Source of the DNA: Spirochaetia bacterium
GTDB taxonomy: Bacteria; Spirochaetota; Spirochaetia; SP-2023
Assembly: GCA_965225855.1 (NCBI GenBank)
Contig: CBDDCK010000001.1
Coordinates: forward strand, 192,001-256,000
Length of the DNA stretch: 64,000 nt
Reading direction: 5' to 3'
A program made the position numbers and the translations under genes. Positions 16,190-51,208 of the stretch are shown one piece after another (the stretch's first letter is position 1; each line of letters starts with the position of its first letter). Below the pieces are notes generated by a model. The model was not told the origin of the DNA, did not search any database, and saw only the letters and a list, made by a program, of their open reading frames with translations.

Positions 16190-18382
16190 ATGTATAAGCT
16201 CAAACTACTTTTATTGCCAGTAGCCTGGCTACTGGCCTTTATGGCCTTGGCCTGCGCCCCACCCGATGACGATGCGCCGTCTTCTGGGCCGTCTGGGCCG
16301 ACTATCAAGAACGCCATGTACGATGTTGGCAAGGCTATCTTAACCGTACAAGGCACTAACTTAAGTCCTACAGAAGCCCAAATCCAAACTATCACGGTAG
16401 CTGGCTTAGCCTTAAGTTCCTATATTGCAGATGCCAAACCCACTGGGCCAAATAGTAACAATCTGGCAAAAGGTAAGTACCGTATGAAAAGCGATGGCAC
16501 AGCGCTTTGGCTGAAACTTAAAGATGAACATAAAGCTGCTCTTGAGGCCAAGGTGGGTAGCAATGGTCTAAAAAAAGGCTTGCTTAGCGTTAGCTCTGGT
16601 GCTTGGGCGGGTTTAGATACAGCCAAAGACTTAACCGTTAGTAATGTACCCGATAAGCAGTCTAAAGTATCCGATGACAATCAGCCATCTAAGCAAACTG
16701 AAGAAGAGTCGCGTAAGCAAACTGAAGACGAACAAGCTGAAGAAGTCGAAGAGCAGTCGCCTAAGCAAGCTAAAGCCGAACAAGTCGAACAAGCTGAAGA
16801 TAAGCAGTCGCCTGAACTACCCGAAGCCGAACAAACCGAAGAAGTCGAAGATAAGCAGTCTAAGACCGAAACCGAAGAGCAGTCGCCTAAAGCTGCAATT
16901 ACCCGTGCAAGCTACAATGTTATTTCAGGCTTCTTAGAGATTACAGGTACTAATTTACCAGCAGCAGTTGCAGACTGGGACTTTAGCAAATTGACGCTTG
17001 TATCCGGTGATGGTACTAATAGATACACATTACCCCGGCACTCAACAGGTCAAGAAAACAGAGCCATAGGTTTTGCAAATAGAAACACAGCCACAGGTTC
17101 TGAAGCAAGTGCAACAAGCTTATATATTGAGTTAAGGGGTAGTGTAAAAGCCAAAGCCGAGAAGATACTGGTTAACGATGGTGTTCGTGATGCTAATGGT
17201 GCATACAACCTGGAAGCAGCAGCAGGCTTTGCAGGTGGTAGCGCTGAAGACACAACCAACCCTATTACCGTTATTGGGTATACAGCCAGCATCACCAAAG
17301 TAGACTACGATGCTAATACAGGCGAGTTATTGATTCAGGGTATCAAGTTACCGAGAGCAGTTGCACGATGGGACTTTAGCAAATTGACGCTTGTATCCGG
17401 TGATGGTAAGAAGAGATACCCATTACCCCAGCACGCAACCGCAGGTGAAAACACAGCCACAGGTTCTAGTGCAGGTACAACCTACTTATATATTACTTTA
17501 AGCGGTAGTATAAAAGCGGAAGCCGAGAAGATACTGGTTAACGATGGTGTTCGTGATGCTAATGGTGCATACAACCTGGAAGCAGCAGCAGGCTTTGCAG
17601 GTGGTAGCGCTGAAGACACAACCAACCCGATTACCGTTAGTGGGTATGTAAGCCTGCTCGACTCCGTATTATACAGAACAACTGTAAGCCAGTTAATTAT
17701 TAAAGGTAGCAGGTTACCGACAGCAGTTGCAGACTGGGACTTTAGCAAATTGACGCTTGTATCCGGTGATGGTAAGAAGAAATACACATTACCACGGCAC
17801 TCAACTGTAGGCGCAAACAGAGCCACAGGTTCTAGTGCAAGTGCAACAGGCATATCTATTACTTTAAGCGGTAGTGTAAAAGCCAAAGTCGAGGCTATAC
17901 TGGTTAAGGTTGGTGATAGTGATAATAATGGTGCATACAACCTGGAAGCAGCAGCAGGATTTGCAGGTGGTAGCGCTGAAGACACAAGCAATAACCCGAT
18001 TACCGTTAGTGGGTATGTAAGCCAGATCACCAACTTAGTCTACAATTCACGTACAGGCGTGTTAACGATTAATGGTATTAATTTACCGTCAACAGTTGCA
18101 GAGTGGGACTTTAGCAAATTGACGCTTGTATCCGGTGATGGTAAGAAGAAATACACATTACCCCAGCACGCAATAGGTGAAAACACAGCCACAGGTTCTA
18201 GGGCATTTAACAACGTCTTATATATTACTTTAAGCGGTAATGTAAAAGTGGAAGCCGATGCTATACTTGATACGGTTGGTCTTCAAGATGCTGATGGTTA
18301 TTACAACCTTGAAGCAGCAGCAGGATTTGTAATGGGTAATCCAGCAGACACAAGCAATAACATTATTTATGTTAGTAATTAG
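16190..18382 (+). CDS. Modular surface lipoprotein, paralog 1 (signal-A-long acidic linker-B-B-B-B)
   Basis: GGAGGT RBS then MYKLKLLLLPVAWLLAFMALA-C lipobox; four WDFSKLTLVSGDG...YNLEAAAGF repeats. Confidence 0.9.
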   Translation: MYKLKLLLLPVAWLLAFMALACAPPDDDAPSSGPSGPTIKNAMYDVGKAILTVQGTNLSPTEAQIQTITVAGLALSSYIADAKPTGPNSNNLAKGKYRMKSDGTALWLKLKDEHKAALEAKVGSNGLKKGLLSVSSGAWAGLDTAKDLTVSNVPDKQSKVSDDNQPSKQTEEESRKQTEDEQAEEVEEQSPKQAKAEQVEQAEDKQSPELPEAEQTEEVEDKQSKTETEEQSPKAAITRASYNVISGFLEITGTNLPAAVADWDFSKLTLVSGDGTNRYTLPRHSTGQENRAIGFANRNTATGSEASATSLYIELRGSVKAKAEKILVNDGVRDANGAYNLEAAAGFAGGSAEDTTNPITVIGYTASITKVDYDANTGELLIQGIKLPRAVARWDFSKLTLVSGDGKKRYPLPQHATAGENTATGSSAGTTYLYITLSGSIKAEAEKILVNDGVRDANGAYNLEAAAGFAGGSAEDTTNPITVSGYVSLLDSVLYRTTVSQLIIKGSRLPTAVADWDFSKLTLVSGDGKKKYTLPRHSTVGANRATGSSASATGISITLSGSVKAKVEAILVKVGDSDNNGAYNLEAAAGFAGGSAEDTSNNPITVSGYVSQITNLVYNSRTGVLTINGINLPSTVAEWDFSKLTLVSGDGKKKYTLPQHAIGENTATGSRAFNNVLYITLSGNVKVEADAILDTVGLQDADGYYNLEAAAGFVMGNPADTSNNIIYVSN

Positions 18383-31261: not shown

Positions 31262-32716
31262 TTAACGTTTAAGGGTCAACAATTCTTGAAGCAGCTGATC
31301 AGAAGTTTGAATCGTACGGCTATTAGCCTGAAAACCTCGTTGAGTCGTAATCATATCTACAAATTCCTGGGCCAAATCCACATTACTCATTTCAAGGGTA
31401 CCCGAAGAAATACCTCCTTTACCTGCTGTTAAAGCCTCTCCAACCCTAGCTTCACCTGAATTGACTGTTTGCATAAAATTATTATTGCCTACTTTTTCCA
31501 AACCGCCAGGATTGGTAAAAGTAGCCATTGCAACTTGTGCTAGAGTTTTACGGATACCATTATCGTAAATACCCGTGACCACACCCCGATTGTCAATTTC
31601 ATACTGTGTTAGGTAGCCCAATTTATAACCATTTTGACGAACCGCCTTGGAAGACCCAGCTGCACTATCTTGAGTAAGAGAATCATTAAAATCACCTACA
31701 TCTCCAGCATCAATCTGCATTACCTGGCGCTGCGGTGCACCCGCTGCATCGAGATTAGAATCTTGCACATCGTATGCCAATTGCAAACTTAAATTGAAAC
31801 CCGTAACAGGCGCCCCATTGGCATCAACCGCACCCTCAACAATATTTCCCGCCGGATCGGTAATTTGCTGAATACCACCACTATTATCAAATTGAACAGT
31901 AAAAGTATTTCCAGCCCCTGCAGCAGGAGGCGCAACACCAATACCAATAGCAGTATTGCCACCATCGGTAACAATACCTTGAGCATCAGTCGTTGGATCG
32001 ATATAAGATGTAACCGTCCAATTGTTTGGAATTGAATTTCCAGCACCATCGAGAGAACGCGTAAAATCCATTCGCAAAGAATGCTCGGAGCCAAAACCAT
32101 CATAAATTGTTTTCGATACCGACCAAGTTCCTTGGGCTACTTGATCTGCTGTCGCATTCGGCGGAATAATCGGCAAATTTTTATCTAAATTACAAGCTAA
32201 ATCAACTTTACCCGTTGCTTGTGGTTTCAGCTTACCATATAAAGGTATAGAAATGGATTCTGGGGTAGCAGAATTGTTGATCTCCTCCACATCGTCAGCA
32301 GTCCAACCCAGAACTCGCATACCCGAAGCAGGATTGACCAAAACCCCATCGGTATCCACACTAAAGGCACCATCACGACTATACATCAACTGGTCACCTT
32401 GTTGCAACATAAAAAAACCGTTGCCTTTAATGGCTAAGTCAGAAGAAAGCCCTGTACCTTCAAGGCTTCCTTGAGTATGGATTGTATCAATCGTGGCCAC
32501 ACTCATACCAATACCAATTTGTTTGGGATTGATACCACCAATATTTTCATTAGGACGAGAGGCCCCCCCTTGAGTCTGGTAGATAATATCTTGAAAATTC
32601 ACCCGATTTCTTTTAAAGCCATGAGTATTGACATTAGCGATATTGTTACCGATCACATCCATTCGTTTTTGGTAATTTTGTAGGCCAGAAACACCTGAGA
32701 ATAAAGAACGCATCAT
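31262..32716 (-). CDS. flgE: Flagellar hook protein FlgE
   Basis: MMRSLFSGVSGL, GNNIANVNT, ACNLDK, LEMSNVDLAQEF...QRGFQANS; GGAGGT RBS. Confidence 0.96.
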   Translation of the reverse strand: MMRSLFSGVSGLQNYQKRMDVIGNNIANVNTHGFKRNRVNFQDIIYQTQGGASRPNENIGGINPKQIGIGMSVATIDTIHTQGSLEGTGLSSDLAIKGNGFFMLQQGDQLMYSRDGAFSVDTDGVLVNPASGMRVLGWTADDVEEINNSATPESISIPLYGKLKPQATGKVDLACNLDKNLPIIPPNATADQVAQGTWSVSKTIYDGFGSEHSLRMDFTRSLDGAGNSIPNNWTVTSYIDPTTDAQGIVTDGGNTAIGIGVAPPAAGAGNTFTVQFDNSGGIQQITDPAGNIVEGAVDANGAPVTGFNLSLQLAYDVQDSNLDAAGAPQRQVMQIDAGDVGDFNDSLTQDSAAGSSKAVRQNGYKLGYLTQYEIDNRGVVTGIYDNGIRKTLAQVAMATFTNPGGLEKVGNNNFMQTVNSGEARVGEALTAGKGGISSGTLEMSNVDLAQEFVDMITTQRGFQANSRTIQTSDQLLQELLTLKR

Positions 32717-32921
32717 ACTGCAAGTAACCTCCTGTAACAACTTCTGTTACTTTGTTATTTCAATTTACCCATCTATATAGCAATTATTCAAAACTATTAA
32801 GGCTAGTTTCGGCAATGGGGCTATTAGCTTTAACCTTTTAAAATAAACTAAAAAATAATTGAAAAAATACCAATTTGCTAAATGTTATCCTAAATATGGA
32901 GATATTGATTATTATCTAAGC

Positions 32922-34049
32922 TTAAAGGTCTCGAAACTGCGCAAAATATCGAACCAGCATCTTAGCGCGATTCTCTTCAAAAGGAATTTCACGCCAAAAA
33001 AATCTTCGCAATTCAGAATTTAAACGTATCTGCCCATGTGATTCATCGAGAATCCATTGACAATATGCATCAACAAAAGCTTGCTGTTCATTCTCTCCCG
33101 GCAAACGATGCTTACGATACAAATCGTAAAAGCCACCTGTAAGACCTTTTTCTAGCCAATAATTTCCTGCTGACAATTTTGCAGTCTCCCAACGATAGTT
33201 TGCTAACGCTATCAAAACAGAACGATGTGTATTAACCGAATATAAAGGAATCACAACACGCCCACGACTCGTTGTACGTTCCAATCGATCATAAGCTTTC
33301 CAGCAAGTACCAAAATTAGAATAAGAAGGCACTAAAACAACATAAGGTTCCAATCTAATTGTTTCTTTTAATAATTTCCGCACAAATACTTGTGGGTCTA
33401 TATTTTTTACCAAGTTGATAATTTTCTGCACAGCTTCCCGAGACGAAATCTGCTGGCTTATTTTTCTACTCAAATCATCTTTGTGCAAAAACGGAGTGGC
33501 CATGCATTTTGAAGCCGAGCATAACTTTGCCATAATTTCTTTAAGAGATGTGGCTTCATTTATTAATTTCAGATTGCTATTATAACCCGTTTTTTTCGCT
33601 GTTGATTTGATTTGAGTATCTTTTTCTGAGATAATATTAATATTACCATTAGCAACATTATGAAACCATTCATCAATATAATAAATCAAACTGGGACGTT
33701 CTGTATGCAAAGCCACTTTGGCTAAAGTTTCACAATCTTCTACAGAAATAGAAGATATATTAAATAAACCGTAACGCATAAACAAACGAAGGTTATTCAG
33801 CTCGGCTTCACGAATATAGGGAAGCAGAATTTTCAAAACATTCTGCCAATAAACATTGAACAACGTAAAACTTTGCTTCCGTCGCTCACTTTTGCGATGT
33901 AAGGGTATCTGCTGATATTTTTCCAAACTTGTTTTTAAAATTTGGAGTTTTCCCAACATCTTTTGAATATCATTATCATATTCTTCATTGAATAAACCAT
34001 GTGCCTCTGCACTAAATAATTTATTTTCTAAAACTGTATGCAAAGCCAT
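32922..34049 (-). CDS. Hypothetical protein
   Basis: 375-aa ORF with W-rich conserved-looking C-terminal block (RWE.AK..AG.YW.E.GLTG). Confidence 0.7.
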   Translation of the reverse strand: MALHTVLENKLFSAEAHGLFNEEYDNDIQKMLGKLQILKTSLEKYQQIPLHRKSERRKQSFTLFNVYWQNVLKILLPYIREAELNNLRLFMRYGLFNISSISVEDCETLAKVALHTERPSLIYYIDEWFHNVANGNINIISEKDTQIKSTAKKTGYNSNLKLINEATSLKEIMAKLCSASKCMATPFLHKDDLSRKISQQISSREAVQKIINLVKNIDPQVFVRKLLKETIRLEPYVVLVPSYSNFGTCWKAYDRLERTTSRGRVVIPLYSVNTHRSVLIALANYRWETAKLSAGNYWLEKGLTGGFYDLYRKHRLPGENEQQAFVDAYCQWILDESHGQIRLNSELRRFFWREIPFEENRAKMLVRYFAQFRDL

Positions 34050-34729
34050 AAAAAAATCATCATTTATTGTCTAAAAATAACTGAGGAAAACTAAAACAAA
34101 GTAAAAATATGCAGGCGATGGTAAATGCATAATTTCTAATTGTCTAGGTCTAATACTCTGAAAAAATAAATCAATGCTTAAAAAACAAACCAACCAATGT
34201 AGCAATGGGAATTTTCGGCAAGGAGTATGAATAACAATAATGCAAAGCCCCAAAAGGCAAAAATGATCAATGGCGAAGAATCTTTCTGTGCTAGAGGTTT
34301 AGCAACAAAACTTTGTAACAAAAATTCTGTTGCGATATTCCAGATGCGGACAAAAGAATACTTAGAACTATGAGAAAATCTGAAGGCATGTTTTACCTCT
34401 ATACTATATTTTTGCCAATCTGCCCAAAATAATGCTCAATGCTAAATTGGCTTTAGCTAAATTATGGTGAAATTAGAAATTGTACGTAATAACTTTTTAT
34501 ATCGTCCAGTATTTTGATGGGCTTTTTTATAAACTTATAATCAAATTTTCCCAAAATTTTCCCAAGTTTAATGTTTCAAATTTAATCTTTATTGGCCAAT
34601 CAATTTGCAGTATCAAAATACAATTTTAGCATTGACAATAATCATCATTATTGTATCTTTGCAGCTTGCAGTTTGAGCCTTTCCTTTATTTATGTAAGGT
34701 AAGATAGCGATCGCTACAGGAGAATGATA

Positions 34730-34960
34730 ATGGCAAGAGTTTGTGATATTTGTAATAAAGGAACTACTTTTGGTAATTCGGTCCCTCGGAAGGGCCTGCC
34801 TAAAAAAGAAGGTGGGGCAGGTCAGCATGTTGTCAAGCGTGTTCCTCGGAATTTTAAGCCCAATTTGTTAAAAATTAAAGGCATATATAAAGGAAAGATA
34901 CAGCGTATGAAGATTTGCACCCGTTGTTTAAAAGCTGGTTTGGTTGAAAAAGTTATTTAA
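34730..34960 (+). CDS. rpmB: 50S ribosomal protein L28 (Zn-ribbon form)
   Basis: MARVCDIC.K...FGN, RNFKPNL, ICTRCLK. Confidence 0.92.
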   Translation: MARVCDICNKGTTFGNSVPRKGLPKKEGGAGQHVVKRVPRNFKPNLLKIKGIYKGKIQRMKICTRCLKAGLVEKVI

Positions 34961-35250
34961 CATTATTTAACAAAGGGGAGGCCAACCAAAAAGGATTTTG
35001 ACGCAGAATTTTTAACGCAGAATTTTTAACAATATGGGATATAAATTGTTGCGTCTTTTTTGGTTTTATCTAATTTCTATAGAAATTAGAATTATTGAGT
35101 CTTGCCCAACACCTTTTTATATCGTCTCCATAGCAGATAAATAATTAAAAAGCAACAATAGCCCCACCCCCAACCAACACCCCAAAGCAACAAACCCGAT
35201 CAACATTGTATTGCCAAAATTGTTTGCTTGAAGAGCCCCGACTAAATAGT

Positions 35251-35295
35251 TGATCCGGGACATGATAACTGAACGGGATAAGACGCGATAACTCG
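35251..35295 (+). repeat. Left terminal inverted repeat
   Basis: TGATCCGGGACATGATAACTGAACGGGATAAGACGCGATAACTCG versus reverse complement of right end TGATGCAGGACGTGATAACTTTGTGCCATCGGACATGATAACTCG. Confidence 0.75.
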
Positions 35296-35410
35296 GGATT
35301 TTTTTGGGGACAAATGGAAGGTAAAAATTGACTTACTTTCCAATGAGTCATTGTCGGCAGTAATTGGGCAACAATATGCTTTCAAAATATCATGGTAACG
35401 GGCCACGGTC

Positions 35411-35457
35411 TCAAAAAGCTAGTAAGGTTTTGACTGAAAACCTTACTAGCTTTTTGA
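35411..35457. terminator. Perfect 21-bp-stem hairpin, probable bidirectional intrinsic terminator
   Basis: tcaaaaagctagtaaggtttt-gactg-aaaaccttactagctttttga. Confidence 0.75.
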
Positions 35458-35496
35458 TTGGCAACCTAGGGATTTTCCAACAAACCCAAACCAACC

Positions 35497-36211
35497 AGCC
35501 CAAAGCAACAAACCGAAATAGCCATACAAACGCAATTGGGCAATTGGTTTGCCGATGAGAATCTACAAGTCATCGCCTGTCTTGCTACAATATAGCTTTC
35601 CACATTGGTATAAAGTATTGTTCCGCATTGGAGTAATGCCTTACTCCGCATTGGTGCAATATAACTTTCCCACTTCGATCAAGGCCTTGATCCGCATTGG
35701 AGTAAGGTATTGATCGAAGGCGGAGAGATGTATCATAGCAAGGCACTAAAAACCATAAAAATAAGCAGGCCATAGACTTGCTAAAACCCAACAACATCGT
35801 AGAAAGCCAAAACTGGGACGACCTCAAATAGGGCCAGTATGCCGATGCTTTGACCTTAGCCCACAGCGTCAATGCTGGCATTTTAGACGACTTGCACAAT
35901 ATCTGGCTATATATTGCGGGCCGATGACCCCAACTGCGATATATTGATACCGCCCAATGGTTGGCATGGTTGGGTTGGCACGGTTGGCATGGTTGGCGTT
36001 GTGCTTGCTATCGCATAGCCTTAAGCCTTTTGATTGGCATGGATTTTGAACCACCTTACAACACTAACACACAAAAAAAGTGCCCAAACATAAAAAAACT
36101 TACAAAAAGCTTGTATAGGCCTTGACGCAACACCCCCCCTAGCAAAATGGGGATTTACAGACTAGCCCGTATGGGTTGGTTAATCTTTATCCATTGTTGG
36201 AGGTATTGCTT
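35497..36211 (+). repeat. Conserved leader, copy 2
   Basis: Near-identical to leaders 1 and 3. Confidence 0.95.
35766..36017 (+). pseudogene. Mu gpF-like head morphogenesis gene remnant, copy 2
   Basis: QAIDLLKPNNIVESQNWDDLK*GQYADALTLAHSVNAGILDDLHNI, then (shifted frame) ILRADDPNCDILIPPNGW. Confidence 0.65.
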
Positions 36212-38617
36212 ATGTATAAGCTCAAACTACTTTTATTGCCAGTAGCCTGGCTACTGGCCTTTATGGCCTTGGCCTGCGCCCCACCCGATGACGATGATCG
36301 ATCTTCTGGGCCGTCTAAGCCGACTATCAATAACGCCATCTACGACTTTGCTACGGCGCTGTTAACCGTACAAGGTACTGACTTAAGTCCTACAGAAGCC
36401 CAAATCCAAACCATCGTAGTAGATGGCGTAGCCTTAAGTTCCTATACTGCAGATGCCAAACCCACTGGGCCAGATAATAGCAATCTGGCAAAAGGTAAGT
36501 ACCGTATGAAAAGCGATGGCACAGCGATTTGGCTTAGACTTACCGATCCACATAAAGCTGCTCTTCAGACCAAGGTGGGTATGAATACCAATGGTCTAAA
36601 AAAAGGGTTGCTTACTAGCTCTGGTGCTTGGGCGGGTTTAAATACAGCCAAAGACTTAACCGTTAGGAATGTACCCGATAAGCAGTCTAAAGTATCCGAT
36701 GACAATCAGCCATCTAAGCAAACTGAAGACGAACAAGCTGAACAAGTCGAACAAGCTGAAGAGCAGTCGCCTGAAGCTGCAATTACCCGTGCAAGCTACC
36801 ATGTTGGCACGGCGCTGCTAACTGTACAAGGTTCTAACTTAAGTCCTACAACTGCGACCCAAGCCCAAATCCAAACCATCAAAGTATATGACCTAGTCTT
36901 AAATTCTTATACTGCAGATGGCACAGCCACTGGGGCAGATAGTAGCAGTCTTGCAAAAGGTAAGTACCGTATTAAAAGCGATGGCACAGCGCTTTGGCTT
37001 TACCTTACCGATCAACATAAAACTACTCTGAATGGCAAGGACGGTATGGATAGCAATGGTCTAAAAGATGGGTTGCTTACTAGCACTGGTAGTTGGGCGG
37101 GTTTAGATACAGCCAAAGCCTTAACCGTTAGTGGAAACCCCGCAATTACCGGTGCAAGCTACCATGTTGGCACGGCGCTGTTAACCTTGCAAGGTACTCT
37201 CTTAGCTAGTGCTACCCAAGCCCAAATCCAAACCATCACGGTAGATGGGGTAGCTTTAGATTCCTATACTGCCACAGCCACTGGGCCAGATAGTCGCGGT
37301 CTTGCAAAAGGTAAGTACCGTATTAAAAGCGATGGCACAGCGCTTTGGCTTTACCTTACCGATCGACATAAAACTACTCTGAATGGCAAGACAGGTATGG
37401 ATAGCAATGGTCTAAAAGATGGGTTGCTTAGCGTTGGCACTGGTACTTGGGCGGGTTTAAATACAGCCAAAGCCTTGGCCGTTAGTGGAAACCCCGAAGC
37501 TGCAATTACCGGTGCAAGCTACGATGTTGGCACAGCTCTGCTAACCGTACGAGGTTCTAACTTAAATGCTACCAGTGCGACCCAAGCGCAAATCCAAACC
37601 ATCGTGGTAGATGGCTTAGCCTTAAGTTCCTATATTGCAGATGAGGATGCCACTGGGCCAGATAGTCGCGGTCTTGCAAAAGGTAAGTACCGCCTGCATA
37701 GCGCTGGCACAGCGCTTTGGCTTTACCTTACCGATCAACATAAAGCTACTCTGAATGGCAAGACAGGTATGGATAGCAATGGTCTAAAAGATGGGTTGCT
37801 TAGCGTTGGCACTGGTACTTGGGCGGGTTTAAATACAGCCAAAGCCTTGGCCGTTAGTGGAAACCCCGCACCCGCAATTACCAGTGCAACCTACAATTTT
37901 ACTACAGGCGTGTTAGTGATTACAGGTGTCAATTTACCGTCAAGAGTGGATCGCTGGGACTTTAGCAAATTGAGGTTTGTCGCAGGTAATGGTCGTACTA
38001 AGAGTCAACCATTATTAGAGCACAACCCAACAGCTTATGATATAAACAGAGCCACAGGTTCTGCAGCAAGTGCAACAAGCTTAACGATTACTTTAAAGGG
38101 TACTGAACAAAGGAAAGCCGATAATATACTGGTTAAGAATGGTAAAAGAGATGCTGATGGTGCATACAACCTGGAAGCAGCAGCAGGATTTGCAGGTGGT
38201 AGGGCTGAAGACACAAGCAATAACCCGATTACCGTTAGTGGGTATGTAGTCAAAATCAACACCGTACGCTACTATGCTGATGATGGCGAGTTAAATATTT
38301 CTGGTATTAATTTACCGACAACAGTTGCAGAGTGGGACTTTAGCAAATTGACGCTTGTATCCGGTGATGGTAAGAAGAAATACACATTACCCCGGCACGC
38401 AATAGGTGAAAACACAGCCACAGGTTCTGGTGCAACTAGAAACATCTTACAGATTACTTTAAGCGGTAGTGTAAAAGCGGAAGCCAATAAGATACTGGTT
38501 AAGAATGGTGTTCGTGATGCTAATGGTGCATACAACCTTGAAGCAGCAGCAGGATTTGTAATTGGTGGTTCAGCAGACCCAACCACTGCTATTAAAGTTT
38601 TTGGTGTTGGTAAGTAA
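36212..38617 (+). CDS. Modular surface lipoprotein, paralog 2 (signal-A-short linker-A-A-A-B-B)
   Basis: Same signal peptide and lipobox as paralog 1; four LAKGKYR...GTA(L/I)WL modules and two WDFSKL modules. Confidence 0.9.
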   Translation: MYKLKLLLLPVAWLLAFMALACAPPDDDDRSSGPSKPTINNAIYDFATALLTVQGTDLSPTEAQIQTIVVDGVALSSYTADAKPTGPDNSNLAKGKYRMKSDGTAIWLRLTDPHKAALQTKVGMNTNGLKKGLLTSSGAWAGLNTAKDLTVRNVPDKQSKVSDDNQPSKQTEDEQAEQVEQAEEQSPEAAITRASYHVGTALLTVQGSNLSPTTATQAQIQTIKVYDLVLNSYTADGTATGADSSSLAKGKYRIKSDGTALWLYLTDQHKTTLNGKDGMDSNGLKDGLLTSTGSWAGLDTAKALTVSGNPAITGASYHVGTALLTLQGTLLASATQAQIQTITVDGVALDSYTATATGPDSRGLAKGKYRIKSDGTALWLYLTDRHKTTLNGKTGMDSNGLKDGLLSVGTGTWAGLNTAKALAVSGNPEAAITGASYDVGTALLTVRGSNLNATSATQAQIQTIVVDGLALSSYIADEDATGPDSRGLAKGKYRLHSAGTALWLYLTDQHKATLNGKTGMDSNGLKDGLLSVGTGTWAGLNTAKALAVSGNPAPAITSATYNFTTGVLVITGVNLPSRVDRWDFSKLRFVAGNGRTKSQPLLEHNPTAYDINRATGSAASATSLTITLKGTEQRKADNILVKNGKRDADGAYNLEAAAGFAGGRAEDTSNNPITVSGYVVKINTVRYYADDGELNISGINLPTTVAEWDFSKLTLVSGDGKKKYTLPRHAIGENTATGSGATRNILQITLSGSVKAEANKILVKNGVRDANGAYNLEAAAGFVIGGSADPTTAIKVFGVGK

Positions 38618-38704
38618 GTTTTGGTTGTTGCGGTAAGCAAGGCTTGGTTGGCTTTTTTGTTGGGCTATTAGGCTGTATCTTGTTGTTGCAACGCTTGGTT
38701 GGCC

Positions 38705-38744
38705 AAAAGCAGCCTTGGTAAGTTTTTTTATCAAGGCTGCTTTT
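38705..38744 (+). terminator. Intrinsic terminator after paralog 2
   Basis: aaaagcagccttggtaa...ttatcaaggctgctttt stem with U-tract; homologous at 51094-51129 and inverted near 46687-46717. Confidence 0.7.
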
Positions 38745-38754
38745 GCCAATTACA

Positions 38755-38851
38755 GCCTTGGTATAAAGTATTGTTCCGCATTGGTGCAATACATCTTTCC
38801 GCCTTGGATCAAGGCCTTGATCCAAGGCGGAAAGCTATATCATAGCAAGGC
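38755..38851. repeat. Downstream direct-repeat copy of the leader fold-back unit, containing a perfect 40-bp palindrome (38795-38834)
   Basis: ctttccgccttggatcaagg|ccttgatccaaggcggaaag; flanks match the leader unit (ttggtataaagtattgttccgcattggtgcaata ... tatcatagcaaggc). Confidence 0.85.
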
Positions 38852-38909
38852 TAGAAAAATTTATTAAGGCTGCTTTTGCCAATTATAGCCTTGGTAAGTA
38901 GAAAAAAAT

Positions 38910-38954
38910 CGAGTTATCATGTCCGATGGCACAAAGTTATCACGTCCTGCATCA
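38910..38954 (-). repeat. Right terminal inverted repeat, copy after paralog 2
   Basis: cgagttatcatgtccgatggcacaaagttatcacgtcctgcatca; homology with the 51164-51208 copy stops exactly at the terminal CA. Confidence 0.8.
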
Positions 38955-39226
38955 ACTTTTAACAGTCAGTGACTATCTATAGTCATAGATAGCTATAACC
39001 TTGATTAGATGTAGCTACTAACTTTAGTAATAGGTTCTGAATAGAGCTAGTCACAATTTATCATAATTTAATATGGCATACAGCCATACATAAACAACCA
39101 ACTTGCTTGCCGCCTAAGCGTATGCTATAAGAGCTAAAAATAGGCCTCAAAGCCAAAAAGCTTTTCAGCGAAACTGGGCCGTATGGATAGATGAATAATT
39201 AAATGCAATATAGGGGAACGAACATC

Positions 39227-39952
39227 CTACCAAGAAATAGCTTGCATGCCATGCTGTTGCAAGTAGGCATTACAGCGCGAAAACGGGCGCGAACCGAAAA
39301 AGCCCCTATGCGCAGAAAGGGGTGAAGGGTGGGTGCTAGCCAGCAGTAAATGCTGGCTTTTATCAATGCAAGCTGCCTTTTTTTGGGCATAAGAACCCCA
39401 CAGTAAAAACACCAAATGCCTCCCTCGTTGGGCCTGCATGTGTGCCAAGCGTAAGATCACTTGGTCGGTAAACTCTTCCCAGCCCTTGCCCGCATGAGAG
39501 GCGGCTTTGCCGTCTTCCACCGTTAGCACACTGTTGAGCAATAAAACCCCCTGCTGGGCCCACCGCCATAATTGGCCATCGGCTACGCCACTGGCCATAT
39601 TCTGCGCTGTTGGGCTGTCTGGTAAATCGCTAGCCAGCTCCTTGTATATATTGATTAGTGAAGGAGGAAGGGCCTTGCCTTGTGGGACCGCAAAGCATAA
39701 GCCACAGGCTTGGCCCTCGCCATGGTAAGGGTCTTGTCCTAGTATAATTACTTTGGTATCTTGGGGTGCAAAAGCCCCAAAAGCAGCCAATATATCGCAA
39801 CCTTTGGGGTAGATGATTTTGCCTTGTTGCTTTTGGCTGCGTAGGTATGCACTTAACTGCTGCATAGGTGCTTGGCTAAATAAATCACCCAGTAGCTCCA
39901 ACCAAGCGGGGCTTAGCTGAACGGGCCTCGGTTTATTCATGGTATGGCTCAT
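39227..39952 (-). CDS. ung: Uracil-DNA glycosylase family 1
   Basis: ILGQDPYHG, PPSL.NIYKEL, GVLLLNSVLTV, HPSPLS. Confidence 0.96.
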   Translation of the reverse strand: MSHTMNKPRPVQLSPAWLELLGDLFSQAPMQQLSAYLRSQKQQGKIIYPKGCDILAAFGAFAPQDTKVIILGQDPYHGEGQACGLCFAVPQGKALPPSLINIYKELASDLPDSPTAQNMASGVADGQLWRWAQQGVLLLNSVLTVEDGKAASHAGKGWEEFTDQVILRLAHMQAQRGRHLVFLLWGSYAQKKAACIDKSQHLLLASTHPSPLSAHRGFFGSRPFSRCNAYLQQHGMQAISW

Positions 39953-39958
39953 TGATAT

Positions 39959-41215
39959 TTAATTTTCCAATAGGGTAATTTCTACTCGGCGGTTGCGTTT
40001 ACGCCCTTGTTCATTGCTGTTGGAGGCAATGGGTTCGGTGCCCCCTTTGCCACGTATCACAATTTGTTCACGGTTGCGTATCTGGTTATCAATAAAGTAT
40101 TGCCCCACCGTTGCGGCCCTGTTTTCTGAAAGGGTCTGCTGTTGTTCTGCGCTGCCCCAATTGGCCGTATGGCCAGTAACTAAAATATCCCGATTGGGGT
40201 ATTTTTGCAGAATCTTACTAATCTGCTGTAGCTTGCGTTCTTCACCCGCTAACATGCGTTCACTATTGGGGTAAAAATTAATGGAATCAATCGAAATGGA
40301 TATGCCTTTATCATTTTGTTGCAGCTCTGCAGCAATGCCCGCATCGCGCAAACCCTGCTCTAATTCCTGTTGTATATCCCTGCGTTTCATAGGTTCGGCC
40401 TCGATAATTTTCCCACGGGAACGCCCGCTAAAGGCTATCTCATCACCGCTTTGCAATAGGTAGGATATTTGGAAATCTTCCTTTTGGAATACAGGCAAGC
40501 CTCGCTCACTATCCCAATAGAGATCGATATTGTGTTCTGCTCGAACCGCCCGTGGTATATCCTGCTGCCGCCTAGAATACGGCGAATTAGTAAATTGCGA
40601 TAGCTGCTGACTGACATCTTTATTGATAAGATAAAACAAGGTGATATGCTTGAGCTTGCGACCCTGCAAAAATTTTTGACCTCTGTAGATATAGTCTACA
40701 ATAAAGGCAAAATGCAATTCGGTTGGTATGCCAAAGACCAAGCTTAAATCCTGCACTTCACTGGCCGGTGCGCGCCAACCTTCACCTACGCGCAGCTCCC
40801 GATTGGGGAAGCTAGGCACATTGCGTAAACTAGGCAAAGTCATCCTTGGCCCTATATTTAAATACAGCCCTTGGGGGGACATTTCAAATTGGGAGCTGCG
40901 TTCTTCGGCGCGGCTAAAAAATGCCCCATTGCTTGCTTGTTCGGAAACTTGATAGTGGACATCCAAAAGGGCATTGGGACCCCTCATAGCCTTCACCGAC
41001 ACCGCAATGCGGTTGAGTATTGTGGTGCGGTAAATTACCTTGCGATTGCGCAAAACTTGTTCATCTACTTGGGCCACAATATGGTATTTTTGGCCCGAAT
41101 AGTGGTTGTATGCCAAACGGACAGAGCCTTGTTCTTGGGCCCATAAAGCTGAAGTTAAAGCCGTAAAGTAAAATATATAGTATCTAGCGGTAGTCAATAT
41201 TTTTTGGAAAGTCAT
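39959..41215 (-). CDS. OmpA-family peptidoglycan-binding periplasmic/outer-membrane protein
   Basis: Signal peptide; C-terminal VTGHTA..LSE.RA..V...NRRVEI OmpA-C domain. Confidence 0.85.
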   Translation of the reverse strand: MTFQKILTTARYYIFYFTALTSALWAQEQGSVRLAYNHYSGQKYHIVAQVDEQVLRNRKVIYRTTILNRIAVSVKAMRGPNALLDVHYQVSEQASNGAFFSRAEERSSQFEMSPQGLYLNIGPRMTLPSLRNVPSFPNRELRVGEGWRAPASEVQDLSLVFGIPTELHFAFIVDYIYRGQKFLQGRKLKHITLFYLINKDVSQQLSQFTNSPYSRRQQDIPRAVRAEHNIDLYWDSERGLPVFQKEDFQISYLLQSGDEIAFSGRSRGKIIEAEPMKRRDIQQELEQGLRDAGIAAELQQNDKGISISIDSINFYPNSERMLAGEERKLQQISKILQKYPNRDILVTGHTANWGSAEQQQTLSENRAATVGQYFIDNQIRNREQIVIRGKGGTEPIASNSNEQGRKRNRRVEITLLEN

Positions 41216-41313
41216 AAGCGGTGCCAGTATACTGTAGAGAAACATCGATACAACAGCAATCTGCCACGAAAAAGGAAGACGATCATAGCCCCTTTAGGTA
41301 TACTGGCCGACTA

Positions 41314-43437
41314 ATGAACAACCAGAAACAATCTAGTAATAACTATAAGCAAAAAACCGATAGTGGCCAAGCACAAAATATGCCATCGCTAGCACCCTTA
41401 CCCTATGCCCATATTGTATTTGTCAATGCTATTCAGCTAGGCCCTTATGCCCTGAAACCTTTGCAGTTTGGCCAGCATGCTTGGGAGCTTACTTTAGAAA
41501 AATTGGGCCAGTTACCCCATAAGCAGCTTCCCCACGCCATGGAAGGTAGCATAGATAGACTGCCTTGCATTTGTTTATTGCCCCCCCAGTCGGCTCATTT
41601 GCCCAATGATATAGCTACGGCCTTAGCACCAGAAATACTGCGCCAGCGGGGCTTGCATCCTTTGCATTTAAAGGACTATTCCGAAGCGGCTCTAATTACG
41701 GCAATACGCCAAGGTATAGAACTGTTTTACCCCCAAGCTTTCCGCCCCGACCCTACGATAAAGGCCTTAGAAAAATATTTAGACTACTTGGATAAGCAAG
41801 AGGCACCAGAACAAGAACCTACAAAAACAAAAGTAGATGATGAAGCCTTCCGTGAAGATGTTGCACTGCCTTTAGCTATGCGCTTCGGCCCCGAGCAACT
41901 GGACAGTAAACAACTATTTTTGGCAGAGAATCTAACTTCCCGCCAAATTCATTGCTACTGGATTGAAGGCGATGCTCCATTACTTTCGCTAGAGCTAACC
42001 CAGCAACTATATGATAAACATCATAACTTTGCTGCCGAGTTTAGTTTTACAGATATCTACCCCCAGGGTTTGGTACCCATATTATTCCAAGCCGCTATAT
42101 TGAGTCGCCTATGGTTTCTCAAGCGGGAACAGTATCCTTCGGGCATATCTTCAAGTATAAAGCCCCAGATTCCCACGCTCAATCCAGTGCCCACTCTCAA
42201 TATTGGGGAAATCGCCGAACGCGATTTAAATTTGTTTGCTGCCGAACCGTTGCTATGCTCTAAAGATTATCGTCTGCTGCGTTTAGATTTGCGAGCTAGC
42301 AACAAACGCCAGTACCAAATATTACAAAGCCTGTACCACAATCTGGCTTCAGATTTGCAACATTCAACAAGAACAAAACACCAAATACCAGTCCAAAAAA
42401 TTCTGCATTGGGTGGAACATTCAGCTGAAAGTCTGCGCAGTTTGCCGCGTTATTTTCCCATTCAAATTTCTGCTACTTGCGCACAGCAATGTAGTTATTG
42501 CCCATATCCTCAAATCGCCGAGCCCCAGTTGTTTCCGCCGCAATCTTTGCGTGCTTTGCGCAAAGATGACAATCCTGCCAATTTTATGTCCCGCCCATTA
42601 TGGCGCAAGCTACTAGCTGCCATCACTGAATTTGCCGGCGATGGGGTGCTCAATCTTTCTCCTTTAGGAGAGCCTTTGTTACACTCGGAATTTGTCGGTT
42701 TTATAGAAGATTTGCAGCCATATCCCTCGTTGGAATTAGTTATTGAAACCAGCGGTAGCCACTGGGAAACGCAGCCTATCCAGCGGTTGCAAGAATATAT
42801 TCAAGCGCACATGCCAGGGCGTATTACTTGGATTATTAGCCTTGATGCCTTAGACCCCAAGTTGTACCAGCAGTTGCGCTCTACAGAAGAAAGTATTTCC
42901 CCATTGACGGGCATGACGCCTAGCCAGCAAAAGGCACATAGTTTAGTGGAATTATTATTAAATTATCATCAATCGGTTTACGTGCAAGCAGTCCGCATGC
43001 GCGACAATGAAGCGGATTTAGAGGCCTTTTATCGCTATTGGGCCGAAGGTTATAAACCTCAAAATGGGCTGGCAGCCCAAGCCCTGAAGGAGCAACCCGT
43101 GCTAAAAACTTTTCCACAAGTGATTGTACAAAAATATAACTCCTACGCTGGCCTTTTGCCCGAACGCCAATTGCTTTCGCTAGAGCCTGTCGAACGCTTC
43201 CCTTGCCGCCGCTTAGCCCGCGAAATGGTATTTGGAATCAATGGAGAGGCCTACCTTTGTGTTCAAGATTTACAGCAAAAACTTTCCAAGGAATTAGAGC
43301 TAAGCCTAGGGGAATTCCCACAAAAAAGTTTAGAAGAACTATGGAGCGTTGGGCACAACTTGTACCAACAGCACATTAAAGCCAATTATCCTAGTATCTG
43401 CCAAAATTGTGATGAATATTATGTTTATAACTTTTAA
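41314..43437 (+). CDS. Radical SAM/SPASM domain protein (spirochete spiro-SPASM type)
   Basis: CAQQCSYC (CxxxCxxC), GEPLLH, C-terminal R.PC..L...C...CQNCDEYY; N-terminal degenerate cytidylyltransferase-like region (GDAPLL). Confidence 0.8.
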   Translation: MNNQKQSSNNYKQKTDSGQAQNMPSLAPLPYAHIVFVNAIQLGPYALKPLQFGQHAWELTLEKLGQLPHKQLPHAMEGSIDRLPCICLLPPQSAHLPNDIATALAPEILRQRGLHPLHLKDYSEAALITAIRQGIELFYPQAFRPDPTIKALEKYLDYLDKQEAPEQEPTKTKVDDEAFREDVALPLAMRFGPEQLDSKQLFLAENLTSRQIHCYWIEGDAPLLSLELTQQLYDKHHNFAAEFSFTDIYPQGLVPILFQAAILSRLWFLKREQYPSGISSSIKPQIPTLNPVPTLNIGEIAERDLNLFAAEPLLCSKDYRLLRLDLRASNKRQYQILQSLYHNLASDLQHSTRTKHQIPVQKILHWVEHSAESLRSLPRYFPIQISATCAQQCSYCPYPQIAEPQLFPPQSLRALRKDDNPANFMSRPLWRKLLAAITEFAGDGVLNLSPLGEPLLHSEFVGFIEDLQPYPSLELVIETSGSHWETQPIQRLQEYIQAHMPGRITWIISLDALDPKLYQQLRSTEESISPLTGMTPSQQKAHSLVELLLNYHQSVYVQAVRMRDNEADLEAFYRYWAEGYKPQNGLAAQALKEQPVLKTFPQVIVQKYNSYAGLLPERQLLSLEPVERFPCRRLAREMVFGINGEAYLCVQDLQQKLSKELELSLGEFPQKSLEELWSVGHNLYQQHIKANYPSICQNCDEYYVYNF

Positions 43438-49008: not shown

Positions 49009-51039
49009 ATGTATAAGCTCAAACTACTTTTATTGCCTGTAGCATTGCTACTGGCCTTTATGGCCTTGGCCTGCGCACCACCCGATGACGATGATCGATC
49101 TTCTGGGCCATCTTCTGGGCCGTCTATCAATAATGCCATCTACGACTTTGCTACGGCTCTGTTAACCGTACAAGGTACTGACTTAAGTCCTACAGAAGCG
49201 CAAATCCAAACTATCACGGTAGCTGGCCTAGCCTTAAGTTCCTATATTGCAGATGCCAAACCCACTGGGCCAAATAGTAACAGTCTTGCAAAAGGTAAGT
49301 ACCGTATGAAAAGCGATGGCACAGCGCTTTGGCTGAAACTTAAAGATGAACATAAAGCTGCTCTTGAGGCCAAGGTGGGTAGCAATGGTCTAAAAAAAGG
49401 GTTGCTTACTAGCTCTGGTGCTTGGGCGGGTTTAGATACAGCCAAAGACTTAACCGTTAGCAATATACCCGATAAGCAGTCGCCTAAGCAAGCTGAACAA
49501 GCTGAACAAGCTGAAGAAGAGTCGCCTAAGCAACCTAAAGACGAACAAGTCGAACAAGCTGAAGAGGAGTCGCCTAAGCAACCTAAAGCCGAAGAGCAGT
49601 CGCCTAAAGCCGCAATTACCGGTGCAAGCTACAATGTTGGCACGGCGCTGTTAACCTTGCAAGGTACTGACTTAGGTAGTGCGACCCAAGCCCAAATCCA
49701 AACCATCGTAGTAGATGGGGTAGCCTTAAGTTCCTATACTGCAGATGACGATGCCACTGGGCCAGATAGTCGCGGTCTTGCAAAAGGTAAGTACCGCCTA
49801 CATAGCGCTGGCACAGCGCTTTGGCTTTACCTTACCGATCAACATAAAACTACTCTGAATGGCAAGACAGGTATGGATAGCAATGGTCTAAAAGATGGGT
49901 TGCTTACTAGCACTGGTACTTGGGCGGGTTTAGATACAGCCAAAGGCTTGGCCGTTAGTGGAAACCCCGCAATTACCCGTGCAACTTACCATGTTGGCAC
50001 GGCTCTGTTAACTGTACAAGGTACTGACTTAGCTAGTGCGACCCAAGCGCAAATCCAAACCATCGTGGTAGATGGCTTAGCCTTAAGTTCCTATATTGCA
50101 GATGAGGATGCCACTGGGGCAGATAGTCGCGGTCTTGCAAAAGGTAAGTACCGCCTGCATAGCGCTGGCACAGCCATTTGGCTTTACCTTACCGATCGAC
50201 ATAAAACTACTCTGAATGGCAAGACAGGTATGGATACCAATGGTAGAAAAGTCGGGTTGCTTGCTAGCACTGGTGCTTGGGCAGGTTTAGATACAGCCAA
50301 AGACTTGGCCGTTATTGGAAACCCACCCGCAATTACCAGTGCAACCTACAATGTTGCTACAAGTGTGTTAGTGATTACAGGTGTCAATTTACCAAAATCA
50401 GTGTATGGCTGGGACTTTAGCAAATTGAGGTTTGTCGCAGGTGATGGCCGTAAGAGTCAACCATTATTCAAGCACAGCACAACCGGTAAAGGTATACACA
50501 GATCCATAGGTTCTGCAGCAAGTGCAACAAGCTTAACGATTACTTTAAGCGGTAGTATTCAAAAAGGGAACGCCAATAAGATATTGGTTAAGAATGGTGA
50601 TAGTGATGATGCTGGTGCATACAACCTGGAAGCAGCAGCAGGATTTGCAGGTGGTAGCGCTGAAGACCTAACCAACCCTATTACCGTTAGTGGGTATGTA
50701 ATTTCTATCACTGGAGCATACTACAGTCCTAATAATGGCAATTTATTGATTCAGGGTACTAATTTACCGAGAACAATTGCAGAGTGGGACTTTAGCAAAT
50801 TGACGCTTGTATCCGGTGATGGTAGTAAGAGATACAAATTACCCCAGCACTCAACCACAGGTGAAAACAGAGCCGAAGGTTCTAATGCAAGTGCAATAAG
50901 CGTATTGATTACTTTAAGCGGTAGTGTAAAAGCCAAAGTCGATGCTATACTGGTTAAGAATGGCAACCTGGAAGCAGCAGCAGGATTTGTACCTGGTAGC
51001 GCAGAAGACCTAACCAATAAGATTATAGTTTTTAATTGA
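49009..51039 (+). CDS. Modular surface lipoprotein, paralog 3 (signal-A-linker-A-A-B-B)
   Basis: Same lipobox; three A and two B modules; last B module lacks the D..D..GAY segment. Confidence 0.9.
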   Translation: MYKLKLLLLPVALLLAFMALACAPPDDDDRSSGPSSGPSINNAIYDFATALLTVQGTDLSPTEAQIQTITVAGLALSSYIADAKPTGPNSNSLAKGKYRMKSDGTALWLKLKDEHKAALEAKVGSNGLKKGLLTSSGAWAGLDTAKDLTVSNIPDKQSPKQAEQAEQAEEESPKQPKDEQVEQAEEESPKQPKAEEQSPKAAITGASYNVGTALLTLQGTDLGSATQAQIQTIVVDGVALSSYTADDDATGPDSRGLAKGKYRLHSAGTALWLYLTDQHKTTLNGKTGMDSNGLKDGLLTSTGTWAGLDTAKGLAVSGNPAITRATYHVGTALLTVQGTDLASATQAQIQTIVVDGLALSSYIADEDATGADSRGLAKGKYRLHSAGTAIWLYLTDRHKTTLNGKTGMDTNGRKVGLLASTGAWAGLDTAKDLAVIGNPPAITSATYNVATSVLVITGVNLPKSVYGWDFSKLRFVAGDGRKSQPLFKHSTTGKGIHRSIGSAASATSLTITLSGSIQKGNANKILVKNGDSDDAGAYNLEAAAGFAGGSAEDLTNPITVSGYVISITGAYYSPNNGNLLIQGTNLPRTIAEWDFSKLTLVSGDGSKRYKLPQHSTTGENRAEGSNASAISVLITLSGSVKAKVDAILVKNGNLEAAAGFVPGSAEDLTNKIIVFN

Positions 51040-51093
51040 TGTTGGTAAGTAAGGTTTGGTTATTGCTGTAAGCAAGGCTTGCATTGGCCAATT

Positions 51094-51129
51094 GCAGCCT
51101 TGGTAAGTTTTTTTATCAAGGCTGCTTTT
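51094..51129 (+). terminator. Intrinsic terminator after paralog 3
   Basis: gcagccttggtaa...ttatcaaggctgctttt. Confidence 0.7.
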
Positions 51130-51163
51130 ACCAAGTTATAGCCATTCTGGAAAGTAGAAGAGT

Positions 51164-51208
51164 CGAGTTATCACGTCCGATGGCACAAAGTTATCACGTC
51201 CTGCATCA
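51164..51208 (-). repeat. Right terminal inverted repeat, copy after paralog 3
   Basis: cgagttatcacgtccgatggcacaaagttatcacgtcctgcatca, one mismatch to 38910-38954. Confidence 0.8.

Follow-up and report, generated by a model that had tools for sequence, protein, structure and literature searches.

Ends of a transposable prophage around a predicted surface lipoprotein gene and many of its paralogs in a Spirochaetia bacterium

A lipoprotein gene between two phage-type ends

The DNA analyzed here is a 64-kb stretch of the genome of a Spirochaetia bacterium (G000; assembly GCA_965225855.1), referred to below as the window and used for all coordinates without a prefix. The element in question is a 3,704-bp unit at 35251-38954, which is bounded, judging from its sequence, by the ends of a transposable phage and which holds a predicted surface lipoprotein gene. 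Coordinates prefixed C3, C4, or C5 refer to contigs of the same genome, which also holds a resident prophage with similar ends (C5:1257688-1293766), and G001-G003 are congeners. Each terminus of the unit starts with TGA and carries two boxes 23 bp apart, the boxes being alike at the left and right ends while the 10-bp spacers between them are unlike. A preliminary description of this DNA had placed TG...CA ends with twin boxes at 35251 and 38954, and these coordinates proved to be exact. With up to two mismatches allowed, the twin-box pattern has three matches in the window as against 0.00 in 100 shuffles. The lipoprotein gene is the sole long open reading frame (ORF) of the unit, which otherwise holds short fossils, and there is no transposition or virion gene, which bears out the earlier statement that no transposase lies inside. 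The features of the unit are the following.

35251..35343, plus strand: left end of transposable prophage, 93 bp, with TGA at 35251 and boxes at 35258-35270 and 35281-35293
35367..35481, plus strand: hairpin module, the usual successor of left ends, with a perfect 21-bp inverted repeat (35411-35431/35437-35457)
35506..35565, plus strand: phage baseplate-region fossil, 96.7% identical to prophage C5:1291790-1291849
35582..35752, no strand: array of 23-bp quasi-palindromic repeats, recurring at 38735-38859 and within the prophage
35754..35924, plus strand: fossil of the 5' end of a gpF (minor head protein) gene, with an internal stop, similar to the Mu gpF of G001
36069..36211, plus strand: promoter-like conserved region, with TTGACG at 36122 and a C7 tract at 36133-36139
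36212..38617, plus strand: predicted surface lipoprotein gene, 801 aa from ATG, with a Cys22 lipobox and 4 + 2 repeats
38684..38896, no strand: 3' repeat and hairpin region common to many paralogs
38892..38954, minus strand: right end of transposable prophage, 63 bp, with TGA at 38954 and boxes at 38947-38935 and 38924-38912

The gpF fossil, also reported in the preliminary description, is genuine. Thirty of 49 residues are identical to the N terminus of the Mu gpF of G001 (PF04233; E 5e-18 for the pair), while the fossil by itself reaches only E 0.016 against PHROGs, and 16 copies of it occur in G000. The gpF of the resident prophage shows only 22% identity to the G001 protein that the fossil matches, and the fossil is derived from a related phage, not from the resident prophage.

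The ends match those of a resident B3/BcepMu-type prophage

The ends of the unit are shared with the resident prophage, which is 36.1 kb long. The left end is 90% identical to a phage-type left end at C5:2030137 and 91% identical to the clipped left end of the prophage, and the right end is 95% identical to the prophage right end (C5:1293704-1293766). The prophage encodes an rve/Tn552-type DDE transposase (rve; phrog_310, E 1.8e-70) in an open 586-aa ORF, in which D144, D238, and E274 can be read. This gene adjoins that of a transposition ATPase (AAA_22, MuB-like), and the other genes code for DUF3164, GemA, Mor, Gp27, terminase, portal, gpF (Mu_F), protease, gpT, sheath, and baseplate proteins. 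The best phage matches of the transposase are Komp_PAO1_1 (37.5%), B3 (30%), and BcepMu (29%). The ends of BcepMu (NC_005882.1) start with TGA and have GATA-core boxes at positions 14 and 37, which is the layout seen in the unit ends, where the box motif always lies 13 bases inside the TGA terminus. By its genes and ends, the putative helper is a B3/BcepMu-type transposable prophage of about 36 kb with Mu-type head and tail genes. B3-type transposases leave a 6-bp scar (PMC8705779). The preliminary description had named Mu, Tn7, IS21, and IS481-like elements as typical bearers of such termini; the helper is of the B3/BcepMu type (rve, 6-bp duplication) and not Mu proper, Tn7, IS21, or IS481, and the prophage is the sole autonomous-type element with these ends.

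The G000 assembly contains one transposase copy. Three right ends lead into baseplate genes, one of them closing the prophage at C5:1257688-1293766; a second belongs to a right arm whose J gene is whole (344 aa) and which runs to a contig break in C4, and C3 opens with another. Near the end of C5 there is an intact left end, and further partial prophage copies stop at contig breaks, so that a fitter prophage copy may be unassembled. At C3:774-928, a prophage right end is followed directly by 157 bp of the end of the repressor gene, in what looks like a rearranged remnant.

The end pattern, which was built from G000-G002 ends so that matches there are not blind, has 48 matches in G000, two in G002, three in G001, and none in 28 other genomes. 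Both G002 matches are the two borders of that genome's own Mu-like prophage. Among the genomes searched, amplification is thus seen only in G000. Exact end patterns gave 0 matches in metagenome, viral, and genome collections, from which the organism's own records were possibly excluded. Other lipoprotein-like genes stand beside Mu-like prophage ends or remnants in G002 (C1:257556-259500, a tandem pair) and in G001 (C4:1726343-1726960).

Ends, target duplications, and an empty site in a large gene family

The lipoprotein gene belongs to a large family. Its start matches 112 places in G000, 106 of them with an ORF of at least 400 aa, and the family makes up 8.1% of the 2.7-Mb genome. A genome scan for ends found 62, to which one was added separately, giving a total of 63 (31 left and 32 right); the search suggested in the preliminary description, for end pairs together with a transposase or Mu-like prophage, thus gave these ends and one Mu-like prophage bearing them. 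Both ends are present in 17 copies, the left end only in 13, the right end only in 10 (one of these having it on both sides), and neither in 72, while a stricter motif gave 101 genes with the same 17 two-ended units. At least 40 of the 112 copies touch an end, and 21 of the 72 end-less copies keep phage fossils or the hairpin module. This module lies upstream of 15/17 two-ended, 9/13 left-only, 2/10 right-only, and 3/72 end-less copies. The promoter-like region precedes 110 of the 112 copies; a sigma-70 promoter scan, which performed at chance level, did not pick 36069-36211. The longest C run in the promoter-like spacer (36122-36150 here) has seven C in 81 of 101 paralogs and six in 17, and this tract is a possible slippage switch, though short.

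Several of the two-ended units bear traces of insertion. Exact 6-bp target duplications flank five of the 17, no other length from 3 to 10 bp being found, and the probability of this outcome under a null that keeps the target consensus is about 3e-11. The 58 distinct flank hexamers have an N-Y-W-W-R-N core, with T at position 3 in 38 and A or T at position 4 in 54. Junction flanks are distinct for 27 of 31 left ends and 31 of 32 right ends, each with an exact boundary at TG, and two of the 63 fall in ORFs of at least 150 aa, as against a genome coverage of 78% by such ORFs. One duplication-bearing unit, C5:1722378-1725605, is absent from a contig of run X4, which comes from another sample and study and is about 99% alike in unique DNA: the contig skips 3,234 bases, that is, 3,228 + 6, and joins the flanks. 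At this site runs X5 and X7 have no coverage, and X1 may be the source sample.

Other comparisons across the family were negative. Left-end subtype was not significantly associated with duplication (5/12 vs 0/5, P 0.24). Three hexamers, as possible marks of cointegrates or inversions, matched between left and right ends of different units, against a mean of 1.17 under the consensus-keeping null (P 0.13), and joining the flanks across all eight pairs examined restored no long ORF. Two of the five duplication-bearing units (C5:48292 and C5:1452721) have a one-box right end, so that one box may suffice or the second was lost later. At C5:847753, a right end is inserted in the leader repeat that also received five left ends, its position being offset from theirs by 4 bases, and this repeat may be a favored insertion target.

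The copy at 35251-38954 is likely a mosaic

The unit in the window lacks an exact target duplication, as already stated in the preliminary description (flanks AATAGT vs ACTTTT), and neither flank has a partner hexamer at any other G000 end. Its left junction is identical, base for base, in five of the seven left ends of its subtype, and its left flank is of a leader type found inside other units. The C/A-rich leader that had been mentioned outside the left end can now be located as the first of two overlapping flank features.

35161..35250, plus strand: left flank outside the element, C/A-rich leader plus one repeat unit, with the same junction at four other left ends
34799..35250, plus strand: host flank, 3' part of rpmB plus intergenic DNA, recurring with the same left junction at C5:1477766-1477306

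The second copy of the host flank is 87.5% identical to the window over 487 columns. The rpmB 3' piece that it contains is frameshifted, and was duplicated together with intergenic DNA and the left junction. Since some 450 bp of host DNA, part of rpmB among it, thus accompany the left junction at C5:1477305, the junction was copied by something other than transposition from the 35251 end.

The interior is composite as well. Positions 35560-37323 (1,764 bases) are identical to the end-less copy C5:876577, and 1,411 bp are identical to another end-less copy, C5:1296066, while outside these tracts the gene at 36212-38617 differs from all paralogs. The unit is the only one of the 17 two-ended units with phage fossils in its leader, as compared with 20 of the 72 end-less copies. 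In the family at large, the 5' and 3' parts of the gene have the same nearest neighbor in nine of 96 genes (rho 0.06), the genes tested being those of at least 500 aa in the 101-gene set. Given the absence of a duplication, the shared left junction, and the 1,764 bases identical to an end-less copy, the copy at 35251-38954 probably arose by recombination and not as a new insertion.

An empty-site comparison had been suggested in the preliminary description, and it gave a precise result at the sister unit described above. At this unit, runs X1, X4, X5, and X6 yielded no joint across it over 32500-41500 among the 15 of 46 joints listed; the listed X4 contigs stop at 35131 and resume at 39207. 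The right-end junction with unique DNA at 38954 is covered by a single contig of run X1. Synteny in G001-G003 is too broken to yield an empty site.

Proposed transposition in trans followed by recombination, and alternatives

We consider it likely that the units are transposase-less elements in which prophage ends surround one lipoprotein gene, that they were inserted by a phage transposase acting in trans, and that the copy at 35251-38954 was subsequently rebuilt by recombination. The transposase (TnpA) and its partner TnpB would be supplied in trans to these end-bounded expression units. TnpA would bind the two 23-bp-spaced boxes at each end, nick at the terminal CA, and join the ends to an intergenic N-Y-W-W-R-N target. 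Joining would probably be replicative, as in Mu, and would yield a new locus with gene and promoter. Recombination or gene conversion among some 100 copies could then swap leaders, repeats, and flanks, thereby removing matching duplications and ends and making mosaic proteins. The copy at 35251-38954 would in this way join an inherited left junction, an end-less-type leader, and a right junction from another insertion. The mini-Mu-like non-autonomous unit envisaged in the preliminary description is hence supported for the family, by the prophage ends, the five scars among 17 units, and the empty site, while this 3.7-kb copy is likely a recombinant. The accompanying idea that such units spread surface-antigen genes stands in part. 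Transposition accounts for only part of the spread, and the surface antigen is a prediction. Since 72 of the 112 copies are without ends, recombination probably did much of the expansion.

Several observations weigh against this account. Besides the predominance of end-less copies, a target duplication is missing from 12 of the 17 two-ended units, among them the one in the window. Genes with ends form no sequence clusters (P 0.13-0.87), which leaves an origin of most copies by transposition unsupported. The empty site consists of one contig, at a depth of 7.6 and with 34 letters on the short side, and concerns the one duplication-bearing unit examined. The resident helper is damaged: its left end is without the first 11 bases, it has no target duplication, its portal ORF stops at 354 aa with a repeat array directly behind, and its baseplate gene J is split. 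In addition, TGAAAGAG is the commonest start among left ends (18 of 31), whereas the phage-type end at C5:2030137 has TGATACGA, and the original helper may therefore be a related phage; this difference, taken together with the foreign gpF fossil, suggests more than one related phage in the history of the family. Finally, assembly collapse could partly account for the long identical tracts.

The same observations could be read to mean that the ends are mostly relics, carried passively from a few early insertions while later expansion proceeded by recombination and duplication, with little transposition. The end-less majority, the left junction that recurs at five loci, once with 450 bp of host flank, the uncorrelated gene halves, and the damaged helper would all fit. 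This is nevertheless improbable in view of the flanks, which are distinct for all but a few ends (27/31 on the left, 31/32 on the right) and have an exact boundary at TG, of the five exact 6-bp duplications, and of the precise empty site in the X4 sample, whose unique DNA is about 99% alike. Even less probable, in our estimation, is that the whole 3,704-bp unit transposed as such and that its duplication was lost through Mu-type replicative inversion or an adjacent deletion. In favor of this, the unit has kept its two ends whole, inversions and deletions are a known outcome of mini-Mu amplification (PMC3145075), and rpmB and ung, on either side of the unit, are far apart in all three congeners. 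However, gene order is poorly kept in these congeners anyway, no other end has a partner hexamer for either flank, the left junction is common to four other loci, and the three cross-unit hexamer matches are not above the null.

Two further explanations bear on the assembly and on the motif itself. The mosaic look of the unit would be an artifact if some 100 similar repeats had been misassembled, and the identical tracts of 1.4-1.8 kb shared with two other loci, an assembly of five contigs that breaks in repeats and prophage copies, and the absence of a spanning contig among those listed could be taken in that sense. We regard this as very unlikely since the right junction is covered by a unique X1 contig and the remainder of the gene is unlike every paralog, and the family-level result would be unaffected either way. 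That the boxes are host regulator sites, or ends of an unrelated insertion sequence (IS) flanking the gene by chance, was named in the preliminary description as the finding that would overturn it. Only the absent duplication at 35251-38954 speaks for this notion, whose probability we put close to nil. It is refuted by the match to the prophage ends, the empty site, and the prophage borders in G002: the motif sits at prophage termini in both G000 and G002, always 13 bases inside a TGA terminus and with BcepMu geometry, and all 63 matches are end starts beside a lipoprotein gene, prophage DNA, or, in two cases, other DNA.

Beyond transposition in trans followed by recombination, one can speculate, although we find it rather doubtful, that the system is domesticated. 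The host would by selection keep a crippled prophage as a source of transposase that seeds a variable surface repertoire of about 106 genes, recombination shuffling their domains. In that event, the clipped left end and the broken virion genes would mean that the prophage is no longer able to leave, and surface diversification would be driven by a domesticated helper of phage origin that selection on the host keeps in place.

The cargo is a predicted adhesin-like lipoprotein

The cargo protein contains four repeats of about 120 aa of one type, followed by two C-terminal Ig-like repeats of a second type. Repeats of the second type match, at 30-40% identity, tandem repeats of many proteins of 1,000-5,500 aa. 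Among nine such giant proteins scanned, five have DUF4347, two RTX repeats, and one cadherin-like domains. A model of the two C-terminal domains, built from a 45-row alignment, consists of two beta-sandwich domains (pLDDT 92.5), with a middling best structural match to a domain of the S-layer protein SbsC (Z 8.1, rmsd 2.9, 98 aligned residues). Folded from a single sequence, the protein reached a pLDDT of 32, and the four N-terminal repeats were poorly modeled. Foldseek returned only antibody fragments (TM 0.2-0.25), an Atlas search gave unnamed clusters with low recognition, and no Pfam family covers the cargo repeat. A Pfam match of the cargo to CrtC (E 2.4e-6) does not fit the repeat pattern and was set aside. 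Overall, we infer a lipoprotein that is exposed on the surface and adhesin-like.

A search of 30 related genomes with this cargo as query gave no match to the lipoprotein. Homologs exist in other public assemblies, namely five close paralogs (64-77% identity) and one at 35%. In the gene lists around two of these outside paralogs no phage gene is labeled near either, and the neighborhood of one could not be matched to G000. Two long divergent G000 paralogs, C5:353763 (1,279 aa) and C5:571748 (1,017 aa), have another signal peptide and are nearer to the 35%-identical homolog; they are candidates for the ancestral form. Fossils of baseplate genes lie upstream of C5:571748. The 3,102-aa repeat protein P0104 combines an N-terminal RVT_1 match (E 2.7e-8) with a Calx-beta domain and is possibly a mis-joined gene call.

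Relation to known systems

The closest functional analogs are engineered mini-Mu(LR) elements with helper MuA and MuB (PMC3145075, PMC8705779), in which only L and R ends surround the cargo and the transposition factors lie elsewhere. As with the units, these elements spread to multiple chromosomal copies with rearrangements as a by-product (PMC3145075). The units differ in being natural, in having a presumed helper with an rve transposase, a 6-bp target duplication, and paired boxes at each end, as opposed to MuA and 5 bp, and in carrying cargo from a host-type family of about 106 genes, mobilized in trans by inference. A natural counterpart is provided by the TALE-carrying mobile insertion cassettes (MICs) of Xanthomonas (PMC4337579), where a repeat-protein passenger lies without a transposase between the ends of TnXax1, a Tn3-family element. 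There too part of the family has two ends, some members one, and many none, with duplications on a subset and shared flanks. The units work like MICs and yet are not classical ones, which by the definition in PMC4337579 have repeats related to an IS or Tn3-type element, whereas a transposable phage is the source of the ends seen here and of the presumed helper. Further differences are that the left end is unlike the right one, that the family is far larger (8% of the genome), and that the cargo is a predicted lipoprotein.

The helper resembles B3/BcepMu phages and the TG-CA prophages of Leptospira (PMC8705779, NC_005882.1) in its TG...CA ends, box geometry, and 6-bp scar, as well as in its rve transposase and ATPase, DUF3164, GemA, Mor, and size of about 36 kb (PMC8705779). 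The unit, unlike these phages, has no phage gene, and the resident prophage departs from them in its clipped left end, lack of a duplication, and gene order. In Borrelia, the cp32 prophages with their Erp and Rev lipoproteins (PMC10016077) likewise link paralogous surface lipoproteins to a prophage; they are, however, whole episomal prophages, whereas here only transposable ends accompany the gene, in the chromosome. As for the giant secreted proteins with DUF4347, cadherin, or RTX repeats, they share repeats with the two C-terminal cargo domains of predicted Ig-like beta-sandwich fold, while the cargo is short and predicted to be lipid anchored, its role in adhesion being presumptive. The literature searched, from which subscription journals were mostly missing and which included a review on the recruitment of mobile genetic elements (PMC8987985), yielded no natural phage-ended cassette with host cargo.

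How large dispersed families of surface proteins originate is an open question for many host-associated bacteria. The present family suggests a concrete route, with seeding by phage-ended transposition and diversification by recombination. Mini-Mu is a laboratory tool for gene amplification in the chromosome, and this bacterium appears to hold a natural version of it with a host-type surface gene, in a family that fills 8% of a 2.7-Mb genome. Like IS and Tn3 elements, transposable phages can thus be accompanied by non-autonomous partners that carry cargo.

Additional observations in the window and elsewhere

Two other paralogs lie in the window. Locus 1 (16190-18382), said in the preliminary description to be without ends, indeed has none; it has a leader of the gpF-fossil type and is 98.8% identical over 2.5 kb to C5:2030079-2027564. 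The third paralog (gene 49009-51039), which that description had not included, combines a gpF-fossil leader with a lone right end within 49009-51208.

51146..51208, minus strand: unpaired right end following the window's third paralog, with the twin-box pattern

Elsewhere, right ends lie on both sides of a 953-aa paralog at C5:1594979-1598895, with pieces of tnpB and gp48 upstream. At C5:1590138-1616622, two ends with matching 6-mers, one right and one left, are oriented toward each other across 26.5 kb, as in a possible large composite unit; this candidate was rejected, the match being not beyond chance and the flanks being non-adjacent in the two congeners with matches on both sides. To the right of the unit, an element of 45-50 bp at 39097-39146 recurs at 14 other places in G000.

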